This document shows, one piece after another, positions 31,297 through 51,557 of a DNA stretch of 64,000 bases. The DNA is taken from positions 32,001 to 96,000 of the IMG/VR virus record IMGVR_UViG_3300030376_003987; one strand, given 5' to 3'. The position numbers and the translations under genes are program-made. The notes under the pieces were generated by a model. That model was given only the letters and a program-made list of their open reading frames with translations, ran no database searches and had not been told where the DNA came from. The stretch comes from a virus (Duplodnaviria > Caudoviricetes). Each line of letters opens with the position of its first letter. Positions within the stretch are counted from its first letter, which is position 1.

Positions 31297-31585
31297 GAAA
31301 CTATACAAAGCACTACTAGGAAATAGAATCTATGTAGAGATCCCTAAAAAGGAAGAAAGTAAACTTATAGTTGACGAGAACACTAAAGAAGAGTTACAAC
31401 GTCAGATGCTAAAAAAGATGTCTAAACTTAAAGTTTATGATGTTGGAGATATAGTAAAGAATGTAAAAGCTGGTGATACAGTATTAGTAGATCCAGGAAA
31501 GTTAAAAGATGCAATGGTTATTCCTTTAACTGATGAAAAAGATGTGCTACTAGTATCCCCATTCGATGTAATACATGTTTGGTAA
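31289..31585 (+). CDS. groES: GroES-like co-chaperonin
   Basis: LLGNRIYVE...VYDVGD...VKAGDTVLV. Confidence 0.7.
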   Translation: MAKKLYKALLGNRIYVEIPKKEESKLIVDENTKEELQRQMLKKMSKLKVYDVGDIVKNVKAGDTVLVDPGKLKDAMVIPLTDEKDVLLVSPFDVIHVW

Positions 31586-32337
31586 TGAGTAAATTCCCTT
31601 TTATATCGTGTAAATGTATAACTTACGGACGAGTTGATACGTTAGAAGAAGCGCTGTACAGCTTTCTTATACAGGATTATCCAAAAGATAGATGTGAGTT
31701 AGTGATTGTCAATGATTATCCCAAACAAAAACTCATATACGATCACCCTCAGGTTACCATCTATAACTTGGATGAAACATTTCCTTTGATAGGAGAGAAG
31801 GAGAACTATGCTATCGAACGATGTAAAGGGGAACTTATTGCTGTTTGGGATGATGATGATGTAGCACTGTCTAATCATCTAATAAATATAGCTCAGAACT
31901 GGAATCATGATACTAATATTATTCATTGGGAAACAGGTGTGTTCTATAACGAACCTAACATTTCAGCCATAACTGGAGTAGGTAATTCAGGAATAGTGTA
32001 TAGTAAAAGTGTCTGGGAGAGAATAGGTAAAAGCCCATTAGTAAATGCTGGTGGTGATGCAATCTTAACAAATAAGATACATGGCTTTGGAAGACAGTAT
32101 GTTAATAATGTTAAGCTGCCTGAAAAAGAAGCTTCTTGGTTTTATATGTGGGGCGGTAGAGGATATCATCAATCTGGACAAGGTGCAGACGATGATACTA
32201 AACCTAACATTATACAAAGGCACTCAGAATATATAGAATCTGAAAGAAAGAAAGGTAATATACCTACAGGTGAAGTATACTTGCGTCCTAAATGGAATAA
32301 AGATTATGCAAAAATGTTATCTGATTTTATAAAATGA
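31585..32337 (+). CDS. Glycosyltransferase family 2
   Basis: ISCKCITYGR...QDYP...ELVIVND...GELIAVWDDDD. Confidence 0.85.
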   Translation: MSKFPFISCKCITYGRVDTLEEALYSFLIQDYPKDRCELVIVNDYPKQKLIYDHPQVTIYNLDETFPLIGEKENYAIERCKGELIAVWDDDDVALSNHLINIAQNWNHDTNIIHWETGVFYNEPNISAITGVGNSGIVYSKSVWERIGKSPLVNAGGDAILTNKIHGFGRQYVNNVKLPEKEASWFYMWGGRGYHQSGQGADDDTKPNIIQRHSEYIESERKKGNIPTGEVYLRPKWNKDYAKMLSDFIK

Positions 32338-32981
32338 AAGTATTAGTAACTACAGCATCATTTAGTAGCCCTCTACATTCTACATGGGTACCTCAGGAGT
32401 CTAATAAGTACGATATAACTCTTAATAGAATAAGTGATGAGACTGATAGTGCTAGGCCTTTAGCAATGCATCCTAGATTACGTGCAAAAATGCCAAAGAT
32501 GTTAGCTTGGGAAGAACATCCAGGTTACGATTATTATGTATGGTTAGATTCTTCTTTCTCTATATTAAATGGCAGGTCCATTGAAAGAATGGTAGACTAT
32601 TGTAGAGATAGTGATGCATGTTTCTTTAAACATTCTGGAAGATCTTCTGTAGAATCAGAGACTAAATTTGTGATAGATCTTCTAAATGATAACAATCAAT
32701 ACATTTTAGATAGATATATAGGAGAAAAGTTACACGAACAACTAAGTCATTACCAAAAAGATAAGGAGTGGAATGACAACTTTTTAGTAGAGTGTGGTAC
32801 ATTTATTTACTCTAAAAATGTAGTGGAGAATAGAGAGTATAACTTAATGAAAGAATGGTTTTATCATAATTGTTTATGGTCCATACAAGATCAAATAAGT
32901 CTACCCTATCTGTTATATAAATTTAAAACCAAATATAAATTCTTTGAAAAGAATGTATATGATAATAGCTATACAAAATGA
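32334..32981 (+). CDS. DUF616 (TOD1/MUCI70-like) glycosyltransferase-fold protein
   Basis: PRLRAKMPK...YDYYVWLDSS...FKHSGR...QDQISLPY. Confidence 0.7.
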   Translation: MKVLVTTASFSSPLHSTWVPQESNKYDITLNRISDETDSARPLAMHPRLRAKMPKMLAWEEHPGYDYYVWLDSSFSILNGRSIERMVDYCRDSDACFFKHSGRSSVESETKFVIDLLNDNNQYILDRYIGEKLHEQLSHYQKDKEWNDNFLVECGTFIYSKNVVENREYNLMKEWFYHNCLWSIQDQISLPYLLYKFKTKYKFFEKNVYDNSYTK

Positions 32982-33247
32982 AAAAGATAAAAGCAAGATG
33001 GATGCCACTGCTTAGAGCAATGGTCAGAGACAGAAGACTATCTCCTATAGAAAGACTAGCTACAAGAGTTGGTTATATGGGTGTAGGTTTCTTAATTATG
33101 GGACAGTGGACACTTATACCAGCATGTTTTATAGCAGGGTTTATATGTGTAATGATACAAGTAGCTGTTAGAAGGCAGTGGAACCTAGTGCTATTACAAC
33201 TCAATGGATTGATAGCGTGGACCATACACTTCTTTAACTCTTTATAA
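32978..33247 (+). CDS. Small 3-TM membrane protein
   Basis: Three hydrophobic segments; RQWNLVLLQ. Confidence 0.6.
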   Translation: MKKIKARWMPLLRAMVRDRRLSPIERLATRVGYMGVGFLIMGQWTLIPACFIAGFICVMIQVAVRRQWNLVLLQLNGLIAWTIHFFNSL

Positions 33248-49800: not shown

Positions 49801-51116
49801 CTGTCTTTTCTTATAAAGTCTGTACCATTCTTTCTCAACCATATATCTATCTCTGTATGTCCAGACCCTGATGTTTTCTCCATTTGTAGAGAATATCCTA
49901 CTTCGTATATACCAGCATGAGGATATCTCACTTGCTGATTGAAGTCTAACACAATACCATTTGCCAACTCTACAGTATTAAATGTAATAGCTGTAGGTGT
50001 GTTAGCTGCAGATACTGCTTGTGTTGTATTATCAGAGAAACTTGCATACCAGTTAGCAATAGCTGCTCCTGAAGAACCGTCTACACCACTTGTTCCTGCA
50101 GAACCTGAAGTCCCTGTTGTTCCAGCAGTACCACTGGTTCCACTTGAACCGCTAGTTCCTGTTGTTCCAGATGTACCTGAGCTACCTGCCGTACCACTTG
50201 TACCAGTAGTACCAGACGTTCCTGGAGTACCAGATGTTCCAGCTGTACCAGATGTTCCAGTTGTTCCTGATGAACCACTTGTACCTGTTGTACCACTTGT
50301 GCCTGTTGTACCACTAGTTCCGCTTGTACCAGTTGTACCTGAAGAGCCAGATGTTCCTGTTGTCCCACTAGTACCACTAGTACCATGTGAACCATCACCA
50401 CCTGTAGCACCGTCTAGGTTTATATCCCAAGTACAATAATTACCACTTCCCACAGTACGTGTTGGAGCAGCAAAACATAAAGAACCTGTTGCTGGATTAT
50501 AAGATAATACCTCACATTCTTGGTAATTGTTAGCATCGTGAGCTATTATAATTGATTGAGCAACCGTGTAAGCTAACCCTGTATCAACAAATAAACAACC
50601 TGACTGTCCTAACGTAAAACAATCTGTTGATGATGTTGCGTACTTATCTCCTTGATCTCCAGATGTTCCACTAGTGCCACTAGTGCCACTCGTACCTGTT
50701 GTACCAGAACTACCTGAAGTACCAGTTGTACCGCTCGTACCAGTTGTTCCACTTGAGCCACTTGTACCACTCGAACCACTAGTTCCAGTTGAGCCAGACG
50801 TACCACTTGTACCACTACTTCCTGAAGAACCGCTTGTCCCTGATGAGCCAGAGGTACCTGTTGTACCAGACGTTCCACTAGAACCAGATGAACCAGATGT
50901 ACCACTAGTTCCTGCAGTGCCAGAGGTACCAGAGGTACCGCTAGTACCATCAATACCTGAACCTTTACATAATGCATCATTAATATTTTGTAATGCTTGT
51001 TCTAAGGTTTGGTTGGTGTTGACTTTAGCGCATACTAAATTAGGTCCTTCGTAAAAGACGCATGCACTACTTAGTCTTGTTTTGCAGGGATCTGCTGCAC
51101 AAATTAACTTACTCAT
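43881..51116 (-). CDS. Giant (Gly-Thr-Ser)n collagen-like fibre / tail-fibre protein (2411 aa)
   Basis: GTS/GSS/GTT triplet runs separated by globular modules (three copies of a YATTS...GATGGDG module, a C1q/BclA-like domain); C-terminal [10 protein letters not shown] fibre motif. Confidence 0.85.
45575..50945 (-). repeat. Degenerate 9-nt coding repeats (Gly-Thr-Ser)
   Basis: accactagt/accagatgt/tcctgaagt variants in long arrays. Confidence 0.9.
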
Positions 51117-51131
51117 CTGGAAATTATTTTT

Positions 51132-51557
51132 TTAGTGTACTATTTTCAGGATGTCTCCTGTTCTGTATATTGATCCTATTTCTGCTCCAGAAAACAATGC
51201 TTCAGCATTATTAGAATATTCAGGAACTCCTTCTAAAGGAGCTGAAAGAAGTCTAGCATAATCAGAACTAGTTCCAGCAGATTTTGCATAATAAACTAGA
51301 CTAGTATTACCATCAACATAAAGTTTTCCTACATAAGGTGCAGGAGATTGTGCATTTGCTGGAGGGTTTGATGGAGAGGGTGCATCAGGTACACCAGCTC
51401 CTGTTAAAGGAACTAGATTGTTATTAACATTGTTTAATATTGATTGTAAATCATCTCCTGGATTCACAACAATATTTGTAAGGTAGGGGCCATTGTATAT
51501 AATGCATTCAGCATTTTGATACACAGCGCACGTTGGGCAAATTTCAGCGGTTCTCAT
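51132..51557 (-). CDS. Small virion fibre-type protein sharing the N-terminal anchor of the giant fibre
   Basis: CIIYNGPYL...LQSILNNVN vs CVFYEGPNL...LEQALQNIN. Confidence 0.7.
   Translation of the reverse strand: MRTAEICPTCAVYQNAECIIYNGPYLTNIVVNPGDDLQSILNNVNNNLVPLTGAGVPDAPSPSNPPANAQSPAPYVGKLYVDGNTSLVYYAKSAGTSSDYARLLSAPLEGVPEYSNNAEALFSGAEIGSIYRTGDILKIVH

Follow-up and report, generated by a model that had tools for sequence, protein, structure and literature searches.

Two candidate glycosyltransferase-repeat pairings point to O-glycosylation of structural proteins in a crAss-like phage

What do the glycosyltransferases (GTs) of a phage act on when their genes lie beside genes for long, serine- and threonine-rich structural proteins? 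The question is raised by a 64,000-nt stretch of DNA (hereafter the window), bases 32001-96000 of one 112,378-bp contig (IMG/VR record IMGVR_UViG_3300030376_003987), which by its gene content is the genome of a crAss-like phage. Two enzymes encoded here, a four-domain fusion enzyme and a GT8-like glycosyltransferase, belong to families whose genes recurrently lie beside genes for Ser/Thr-rich repeats, collagen-like Gly-X-Y (G-X-Y) repeats in the one case and poly-Thr tracts in the other. From gene neighbourhood and homology, with the neighbouring gene products as presumed substrates, we consider it likely that two separate enzyme-acceptor modules O-glycosylate structural proteins of the phage in the host cytoplasm before assembly. 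The original prediction for this region had described a single system in which several GTs, two of them initiating enzymes, modify Ser/Thr-rich virion proteins. Of that proposal, the co-occurrence of enzymes with acceptors held up in other genomes, but integration into one system and the assignment of one enzyme to the HPAT family did not. The first pairing, module A, comprises the following features (window positions).

39102-42560, + strand: four-domain fusion enzyme of 1152 aa (methyltransferase, retaining GT-A, GT4, TibC/Aah-like)
39102..39431, + strand: domain 1, class I S-adenosylmethionine (SAM) methyltransferase (PF13489 E 9.8e-6, PF08241 E 1.5e-4, residues 20-106)
39429..40541, + strand: domain 2, retaining GT-A glycosyltransferase by fold match (residues ~110-480)
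40542..41501, + strand: domain 3, GT4 (GT-B) glycosyltransferase (PF00534 E 1.1e-10, PF13692 E 2.5e-10, residues 620-762)
41502..42560, + strand: domain 4, GT-B glycosyltransferase like TibC/Aah, the bacterial autotransporter heptosyltransferases (BAHT) (TIGR04414 261.6 bits, residues 826-1150)
42544..43878, - strand: collagen-like protein of 444 aa (PF01391 E 1.9e-38; S+T 19%, G 23%, P 7%)
43881..51116, - strand: collagen-like fibre of 2411 aa (PF01391 E 2.6e-138, 19 stretches)
51132..51557, - strand: 141-aa protein with a ~47-aa N-terminal module in common with the fibre and no poly-Thr tract

The four-domain architecture that had been read from the sequence at 39102 is confirmed by Pfam, by TIGR04414, by a match to the TibC structure and by structure modelling with Foldseek searches. 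Domain 1 also matches PDB 3cc8 (E 1.8e-6), and domain 3 exceeds the gathering thresholds of both its Pfam families (41.8 vs. 26.4 bits for PF00534, 41.2 vs. 27 for PF13692), with no specific GtfA signal in an NCBIfam scan. Since the middle segment matched no GT family in Pfam at E<=10, as was also the case for the GT8-like enzyme described below, folds were used for these two instead. The AlphaFold2 (AF2) model of domain 2 (21 homologues; predicted local distance difference test score, pLDDT, 81.4) resembled the UGGT catalytic domain, ABO transferases, alpha-1,3-galactosyltransferase (alpha-1,3-GalT) and LgtC, at E ~1e-6 and template modelling (TM) scores of 0.4-0.5, and its DxD motif (D157 and D159 in the numbering of the folded segment) is invariant across 22 homologues.

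Judged by profile and catalytic core, domain 4 is a real member of the TibC family. Its score lies above the curated NCBIfam cut-off for TIGR04414 (200 bits), it matches the TibC structure (PDB 4rap) at E 1.1e-45, and it is ~36% identical to plasmid aah/tibC genes. Residue roles in TibC were defined in a structure paper (PMC4358343), according to which Asp-110 is the catalytic base and Thr-226, Lys-230 and Trp-305 bind the donor phosphate/sugar. Aligned to TibC, domain 4 retains all four as well as Phe-368, and the corresponding D84, T203, K207 and W271 (domain numbering), like the Phe, are invariant in 16 viral homologues. The iron-finger cysteines of TibC (Cys-339, 342, 358 and 370) all align too, as C304, C307, C323 and C335, invariant in 16 homologues. 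Pro-300 of TibC is Ser in domain 4, as in Aah. In a quick tree that held only three classical rows, the three classical aah/tibC enzymes formed a separate long-branched clade (Shimodaira-Hasegawa-like approximate likelihood ratio test, SH-aLRT, 100). A GT4 plus TibC-like core was common to 30 of 33 fused representatives. Around this core were found a methyltransferase in 12 representatives, a polysaccharide pyruvyl transferase in two and GT25 in one, the methyltransferases being of several unrelated types and placed at either end. Such shuffling of tailoring domains around a fixed core is in keeping with the assembly and decoration of a short glycan by this enzyme.

Both collagen-like proteins that had been noted beside the fusion enzyme are present, as seen from PF01391 matches and run counts. 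The 2411-aa fibre holds at least 17 G-X-Y runs that total 1101 aa (counting runs of at least 5 triplets), with 189 GTS, 62 GSS and 34 GTT triplets, and Pro occurs only three times within the runs. The runs are broken by three copies of a globular module and followed by a non-repeat C-terminus of ~560 aa, and tail-fibre PHROGs are matched via the collagen repeats. We propose this protein as the main acceptor of the fusion enzyme. The 444-aa protein is of the ordinary Pro-containing collagen-like type, and its gene is convergent with that of the fusion enzyme, the 3' ends overlapping by 17 bp. The 141-aa protein shares with the fibre an N-terminal Cys-containing module (fibre positions 50976-51116; 32% identity over 47 aa, E 2e-6 in a single BLASTP comparison), which suggests a common attachment domain of two different fibres. 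No autotransporter domain was found among the scanned window or genome proteins.

Co-occurrence of TibC-like genes with (GTS)n proteins, which the original prediction led one to expect in other genomes, was found across many viral lineages and in bacteria. Two viral scans were made, one seeded with the window domain (set 1; 80 loci kept of 145 relatives) and one with the domain of the unrelated Microcystis phage Mel-JY01 (set 2; 80 loci kept of 333), and the two may overlap. An S/T-rich collagen-like open reading frame (ORF), defined by at least 60 aa of G-X-Y runs with S/T in at least half of the X/Y positions, was present in the flanks (+/-10 kb) of 56/80 loci in set 1 and 34/80 in set 2. 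Control loci, which were scored at a looser threshold of at least 45 aa of G-X-Y runs, had an S/T-rich G-X-Y ORF in 0/80 cases around ribonucleotide reductase (RNR) genes, 3/59 around Mel-JY01 terminase genes and 6/80 around GT8-like genes. The RNR loci are from close relatives of this phage only (at least 89% identity), and so control for position within the lineage and not for phages generally; the Mel-JY01 terminase gene lies within ~7 kb of that phage's own TibC-like gene, on short loci, and its three positives may be linked cases. The domains were also clustered at 70% identity, which gave 40 clusters. By a rule that favours positives (an informative cluster has a positive locus, or one flanked on each side by 6 kb or more), 29 fused-form clusters had an S/T-rich collagen-like neighbour and one informative fused cluster had none; two solo clusters also had none, and 8/40 clusters were uninformative.

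The arrangement of the pairing varies, the collagen-like gene being convergent and downstream in the crAss-like group and upstream on the same strand elsewhere. In Mel-JY01, a G-S/T-S ORF of at least 1016 aa lies 1.7 kb upstream of the TibC-like gene, and in the 735-kb phage LR756501 one of 699 aa lies 3.6 kb upstream; no G-S/T-S ORF was found in the flanks of the solo form in LR756504. The bacterial scan yielded 35 loci, mainly from methanotrophs and other Proteobacteria, with an S/T-rich G-X-Y ORF at 20 of them (18 within 1.5 kb and 15 within 300 bp). These bacterial neighbours are small proteins that begin with a signal peptide or lipobox and continue as (GTS)n, (GSS)n or (GTT)n. Other genes were seen around the TibC-like genes as well. 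At one viral locus (L039, 11725-14499; also L036 and L038), the TibC-like fusion is followed by an FkbM methyltransferase and by a 925-aa protein in which several Hint/intein and AXH domains are combined. Two unrelated lineages (L108, 11546-14422; L084, 11243-13162) have, immediately downstream of the TibC-like gene, cytidylyltransferase-like genes with a possible role in making nucleotide sugars. For pelagimyophages, rfaE has been reported in tail-fibre regions (PMC7029224).

The second pairing, module B, lies upstream of the fusion enzyme on the opposite strand.

35117..35140, - strand: terminator-like hairpin, a 10-pair stem with 6 G-C pairs and then a T run (consensus scan)
35151..35579, - strand: 142-aa protein with a CCNP-T7-AALP tract (phrog_21885 E 3.5e-7)
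35617..36555, - strand: GT8-like retaining GT-A glycosyltransferase (phrog_4417 E 2e-68)
36586..36723, - strand: 45-aa ORF ending NNP-T8-P, directly upstream of the GT8-like gene

Two poly-Thr ORFs thus flank the GT8-like gene, all on the same strand, and the hairpin closes the unit. The enzyme at 35617 is GT8-like according to its modelled fold; it matched no Pfam family at E<=10, Glyco_transf_8 included, and neither it nor the protein at 32334 (below) gave anything significant against the sequences of solved structures. Its AF2 model (pLDDT 94.8) had glycogenin, WbbM, UGGT and GlyE as top Foldseek matches (E 6e-7 to 3e-5, probability 1.00, TM only ~0.5), and D98 and D100 of the DxD motif are invariant in an alignment of 33 relatives. 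The earlier label of an SRGT1/HPAT-like enzyme was not reproduced: PF23452 had no match in the window protein and one among the 33 relatives, at E 0.38, and membership in HPAT was rejected. PF23452 was present in one ESM-Atlas cluster near the 35617 protein, in 10% of its members. We propose that the protein is a poly-Thr O-glycosyltransferase, with the adjacent 142-aa T7 protein as a candidate acceptor; among related loci, a homologue of this protein was found in 43/80 and the GT8-like enzyme in 45/80.

The two NP-(T)7-8 proteins first noted are both present, at 35151-35579 and 36586-36723, but they understate the signal. The whole genome holds 24 tracts of at least six Thr (T6+) in 8 ORFs, all on the structural strand, of which 18 are exactly T7 and 13 are preceded by Pro, an abundance far above chance for a residue at ~7%. 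ACT, ACA and ACC codons are mixed within the tracts, which are therefore not a repeat at the DNA level; selection acts on the protein. Among the tract carriers are a 2212-aa protein that matches a virion-protein PHROG (E 2e-118) and unannotated ORFs of the structural block (422, 640, 1104 and ~204-222 aa).

Poly-Thr tracts accompany this enzyme family well beyond the window, as had been anticipated, and usually in an adjacent gene. A profile scan with the phrog_4417 family recovered at least 581 viral relatives. From these, 80 loci were retained; identity was 33-40% for 79 of them and 64% for the remaining one. An ORF with a T6+ tract was found within +/-6 kb at 66/80 of these GT8-like loci, at a median distance of 57.5 bp and on the same strand in all 66 (55 downstream, 11 upstream). 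Loci within a lineage share ancestry, so counts by cluster are the fairer measure; at 70% identity, 20 of 23 clusters had a tract ORF, directly adjacent in 17. Tract density at the GT8-like loci was 21.7 per 100 kb, as against 0.0 at terminase loci, 1.3 at RNR loci and 0.9 in TibC set 2, and between 0 and 8 loci per control set of 59-80 had a tract ORF. Among 57 crAss-like relatives with at least 7 kb of upstream flank, 39 had both enzyme and tracts, 17 had neither, one had tracts only and none had the enzyme only.

The family also occurs in 77 records of cultured phages, and poly-Thr tracts were present in the GT flanks of all 9 that were examined. In seven of these, the tracts are found at the end of a major tail, capsid or structural protein, or of an ORF without annotation at the same place; in the remaining two, small or unannotated ORFs immediately upstream of the GT gene carry them. 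In Enterococcus phage phiFL1A, three T runs stand at the end of the major tail protein and the GT gene begins at its stop codon; in Lactococcus phage 1706, T10 ends the major structural protein; in Lactobacillus phage iLp84, T7-SK closes both the major capsid and the major tail protein, with a small T-rich ORF ahead of the GT gene. T8-9 is found at the major tail protein ends of Staphylococcus phage SA2 and Arcanobacterium phage TPWB06, and in Clostridium phage phiCTP1 the unannotated gp18, in the major-tail position just upstream of the GT gene, ends T5...T6. Lactobacillus phage Semele and Chryseobacterium phage MA9V-3 have T-rich ORFs just upstream of the GT gene, and in Enterococcus phage 9183 a T-rich frame overlaps the end of the capsid gene. 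A separate observation concerns the reading frame. In SA2 (L427, 2117-2930), TPWB06 (L432, 2164-2926) and Enterococcus phage 9183 (L431, 2770-2889), an ORF composed almost wholly of poly-Thr tracts overlaps, out of frame, the major tail or capsid gene at its 3' end, which looks like a programmed frameshift that would give a fraction of the subunits a long Thr-rich extension.

Do the two modules form one system, and do the remaining sugar-related genes of the window belong to it? Three such genes had been included in the proposal, and all three reading frames are present.

16726..17598, + strand: NAD-dependent nucleotide-sugar epimerase, GalE-like (PF01370 E 4.2e-48; phrog_540 E 3e-72)
31579..32337 (ATG 31585), + strand: GT2-family glycosyltransferase (PF00535 E 2.2e-8)
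32334..32981, + strand: TOD1/MUCI70-like putative glycosyltransferase (phrog_26101 'glycosyltransferase', weak at E 9.4e-5)

The best NCBIfam match of the epimerase is GalE (160.8 bits vs. a cut-off of 262.3), and it falls below every NCBIfam cut-off; as a putative member of the system, it may supply a donor sugar. The DUF616 label given to the 32334 protein found no profile match, with no Pfam family at E<=10, and comes down to a lead from a language model: in its nearest ESM-Atlas clusters, 63-76% of members carry PF04765 (TOD1_MUCI70, which we take to be the former DUF616). Neither this gene nor GT2 showed a link to either type of acceptor, and both vary among relatives. GT2 homologues occurred at 9/80 related TibC loci and 21/80 RNR loci, and within the crAss-like loci the TOD1-like gene occurred in 2/80, GT2 in 9/80 and the GT8-like gene in 45/80, the GT2 and TOD1-like counts being lower bounds because both genes lie at the edge of the fetched flank. 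Directly after these two genes is an 89-aa hydrophobic ORF (32978-33247, +); should its product be a membrane protein, this would speak for a function of the GT2 and TOD1-like enzymes on lipid-linked sugars or at the host surface. As for the modules themselves, a GT8-like gene was found in 2/80 TibC set-2 loci and a TibC-like domain in 2/80 GT8-like loci. Each enzyme also kept to its own repeat, with T6+ tracts in 5/80 TibC set-2 loci and S/T-rich G-X-Y ORFs in 6/80 GT8-like loci. The mutual rarity of the two modules indicates that they travel independently, and a single integrated system was thus too strong a claim; from these surveys, the phage appears to combine two portable modules.

Taken in this way, the locus would work as follows. 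In module A, the fusion enzyme (39102-42560) would act on the (G-T/S-S)n fibre (43881-51116) and probably on the 444-aa protein too. TibC itself glycosylates Ser in repeat proteins, and the characterised members of its family are protein O-glycosyltransferases (PMC4358343). From this homology, the TibC-like domain would most likely start the glycan on Ser or Thr of the triplets, after which GT4 and GT-A would lengthen it and the methyltransferase would cap it. In module B, the GT8-like enzyme (35617-36555) would act on the poly-Thr tracts, mostly T7 and often after Pro, of the 8 ORFs, among them the two small ones on either side of its gene. For GT2, the TOD1-like protein and the epimerase, a part in feeding or extending the glycans is conceivable; no link was seen here. 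The order of steps, the donor sugars, the cytoplasmic timing and the function of the glycan, which might lie in support of the triple helix, adhesion or shielding, are conjectural parts of this scheme.

Several observations weigh against the scheme. Arg-286 of TibC, whose contact with adenine N1 goes with ADP-sugar specificity, is Thr in the window domain and is Arg in 0/16 aligned homologues. Further, the beta-hairpin thumb (Phe-265/Val-266 segment), which is needed for the dodecamer ring of TibC (PMC4358343), appears largely deleted, with a 9-residue gap in the alignment to TibC and, in the crAss-like clade, 6 further residues deleted relative to other viral forms. The replaced arginine and the shortened thumb suggest that domain 4 probably differs from TibC in donor nucleotide and in oligomeric form. 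In the surveys, 15/35 bacterial and 46/80 set-2 loci were without an S/T-rich collagen-like neighbour, many of them having short flanks, and the Fisher p-values (1e-7 to 1e-26) overstate significance because the loci are not independent. One viral cluster of 30 loci has a separate TibC-like gene (~385 aa) and no S/T-rich collagen-like gene within 10 kb. At the three of these loci that were inspected, an ORF of 721-727 aa abuts the TibC-like gene and one of 1935-2275 aa lies just upstream; at L108, the single locus scanned with Pfam, the abutting ORF is a GT4 plus O-methyltransferase and the large ORF is a Peptidase_S74 fibre with one G-X-Y stretch of 24 aa only. As an outright counter-example the solo cluster is weakened by these neighbours, and it is better seen as a partial exception, a presumed split form in which the link to a fibre gene is kept and that to long GTS repeats is not. 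Lastly, published readings of such phage GTs favour modification of host O-antigen or of DNA (PMC7029224, PMC10202952).

If the GTs modified host surface glycans (O-antigen, capsule or lipid-linked sugars) and so blocked superinfection or altered receptors, their proximity to fibres would reflect no more than a shared hypervariable host-recognition region. This is how GT8-type and other GTs of a pelagimyophage tail-fibre cluster (PMC7029224) and the GTs of actinophages (PMC10202952) have been read. For GT2 and the TOD1-like gene, which lack an acceptor link and precede the hydrophobic ORF, it is the best reading, and the best weak NCBIfam matches of GT2 and GT4, far under cut-offs, are polysaccharide and glycolipid enzymes. 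The association, however, tracks composition (S/T-rich G-X-Y, poly-Thr) and not fibres as such. The tracts of Gram-positive siphophages are on proteins that do not bind receptors, namely the major tail and capsid proteins; bacterial TibC-like genes abut those for small secreted (GTS)n proteins outside any phage context; among relatives, the enzyme and the tracts are almost without exception either both present or both absent; and the characterised members of the TibC family modify protein (PMC4358343). For the enzymes as a set, we therefore regard host-glycan modification as unlikely. Another candidate target is the phage DNA, whose bases would be glycosylated in evasion of restriction; phage GTs commonly have this function (cited in PMC10202952 and in PMC7029224), and this phage holds a large nucleotide-metabolism block that includes RNR and uracil-DNA glycosylase (UDG). 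Pfam scans of 50 window proteins (small ORFs in part) nevertheless gave no hydroxymethylase or base-hypermodification enzyme, the BAHT, GT4 and GT8-like families with their methyl- and pyruvyl-transferase domains fit the building of oligosaccharides, and the composition of the neighbours would be left unexplained, so that a role on DNA is very improbable. The repeats could also be plain flexible linkers or unmodified collagen stalks, the enzymes acting on a small molecule or on themselves, as glycogenin does. Low-complexity linkers are indeed commonly made of poly-Thr or G-S/T-rich stretches, glycogenin, which glucosylates itself, is among the nearest fold matches of the 35617 protein, and the split-form lineage keeps its enzymes with almost no G-X-Y in the adjacent fibre (one locus analysed). 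Linkers of this kind do not predict a strong, two-way and lineage-independent linkage in which each enzyme family tracks its own repeat type, and we think this explanation quite unlikely. O-glycosylation of the phage's own structural proteins by two modules accordingly stays our preferred, and still provisional, reading.

How do the two modules compare with known systems? Like the classical TibC/Aah enzymes, domain 4 has the catalytic Asp, the Thr/Lys/Trp set and four iron-finger Cys, and it would belong to a cytoplasmic enzyme (predicted here) that hyper-glycosylates a repeat protein encoded next door. It is unlike them in that it is fused to GT4, GT-A and methyltransferase domains, lacks Arg-286 and has an apparently shortened thumb; in addition, its neighbour is (G-T/S-S)n collagen-like, whereas classical plasmid aah/tibC genes abut AIDA-I autotransporters. 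The BAHT family takes its heptose from ADP-heptose; in the phage, no gene of a heptose pathway was seen, the GalE-like epimerase being the only sugar-nucleotide enzyme. The nearest experimentally grounded analogue of module A is the SgtA-BclA3 pair of Clostridioides difficile, in which SgtA, encoded immediately beside bclA3, adds O-linked N-acetylglucosamine (O-GlcNAc) to Thr of collagen repeats (PMC7157674). In BclA of Bacillus anthracis the glycan is capped by a methylated sugar (PMC6222408). SgtA, in contrast to the BAHT/GT4 fusion in the window, is a GT-A plus tetratricopeptide repeat (TPR) O-GlcNAc transferase, and BclA-type repeats are GPT with proline on a spore surface, whereas here they are proline-free, GTS-type and on a phage fibre. 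Module B has its closest counterpart in the capsid glycosylation of mycobacteriophages. The GTs of actinobacteriophages (Che8 and relatives) are reported to attach glycans covalently to major capsid proteins, and a GT plus methyltransferase gene signature is used as a predictor there (PMC11256854, PMC13313380). Those systems have other enzyme families and other hosts, the phages here being Bacteroidota-type crAss-like, marine and Firmicutes phages, and the candidate acceptors here, known from genes alone, are defined sequence tags (poly-Thr, GTS triplets). Homopolymer-like Ser/Hyp tracts are acted on by the GTs of serine-rich-repeat adhesins (GtfA/B, GlyE) and of plant extensins (HPAT, SRGT1), which are cytoplasmic in bacteria and in the Golgi in plants. 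GlyE is among the fold matches of the 35617 protein, which shares no sequence-family membership with HPAT/SRGT1.

The setting of the locus is that of a crAss-like genome. PHROG families are matched by the terminase, portal and major head protein among the genome proteins scanned, and the portal is 25-27% identical to crAss-like phage portals (147 matching records, the most frequent organism names being uncultured with 49, Bacteroides with 30, Flavobacterium with 29 and Cellulophaga with 9). Contigs binned with Sediminibacterium, Chitinophaga and Lutibacter hold three close homologues of the fusion enzyme. Because of the organism names of the phage's relatives, the host is presumably a member of the Bacteroidota. 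A search of 12 kb of the region against cultured phages for near-identical DNA gave no match. Genes of replication and nucleotide metabolism (helicases, primase, RNR, RecA, UDG) occupy the + strand between ~2,000 and 33,250. On the - strand, the stretch that runs from 64,000 down to 42,544 forms the last part of a very long operon of structural genes, which wraps around the contig end.

Some other features of the genome were noted in passing. An ORF at 56432-64000 (-) runs on to genome position 100857 (L003, 3-6857) and encodes ~4140 aa with no PHROG match; it is one of several giant proteins (2212, 1601, 1274 and 1134 aa) of the kind typical of crAss-like cargo/virion proteins. Between it and the fibre genes sits the 1601-aa protein (51627-56432, -), with a PD-(D/E)XK nuclease domain (PF12705 E 8.5e-5; phrog_298). 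Three successive Lys/Arg-rich proteins of 96-103 aa (33276-34198, -), two of which match DUF6321 and DUF5872, may be DNA-binding or internal virion proteins. The early region encodes a spore-photoproduct-lyase-like radical-SAM protein (4289-5122, +; PF20903 E 3e-15). Outside the window, 10 N stand within a poly-Thr-bearing ORF near the contig end (genome 111918-111927).

Glycosylation is already known from phage virions and, separately, from collagen-like filaments, and so is the BAHT family; the two specific enzyme-repeat pairings and their breadth are new. A literature search, with most subscription journals and supplements outside its reach, found no paper that links TibC-like enzymes with collagen-like proteins, and none that links poly-Thr tracts with phage glycosyltransferases. 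A wider view, which we offer tentatively and to which we would give slightly less than an even chance, is that poly-Thr and (G-T/S-S)n are portable glycosylation tags, read by the phrog_4417 family and by a collagen-specific branch of BAHT enzymes, respectively. Capsids, tail tubes and fibres would then be sugar-coated in crAss-like, marine, cyanobacterial, lactic-acid-bacterial, enterococcal and staphylococcal phages, and virion glycosylation would be common instead of peculiar to actinophages. The glycan would let a proline-free fibre fold, and many of the tail-fibre-region GTs annotated for host O-antigen would modify the phage itself.

If the two pairings hold, glycosylated phage proteins could be predicted from genomes alone by simple sequence rules, namely poly-Thr, either within a protein or at its C-terminus, next to a phrog_4417 gene (at least 581 viral contigs) and GTS-type collagen repeats beside a GT4 plus TibC-like gene (145 + 333 viral contigs), and these rules would also cover easily grown phages. 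Glycan coats are reported to affect immune recognition of therapeutic phages in the case of mycobacteriophages (PMC11256854), and those proposed here could have a bearing on adsorption and on the stability of the particle. A second class of substrate would be added for the TibC family, so far known from autotransporter adhesins only, and the stabilisation of proline-free collagen-like fibres would have an explanation open to test. The annotation of GTs in tail-fibre regions as modifiers of host O-antigen would likewise need to be revisited.

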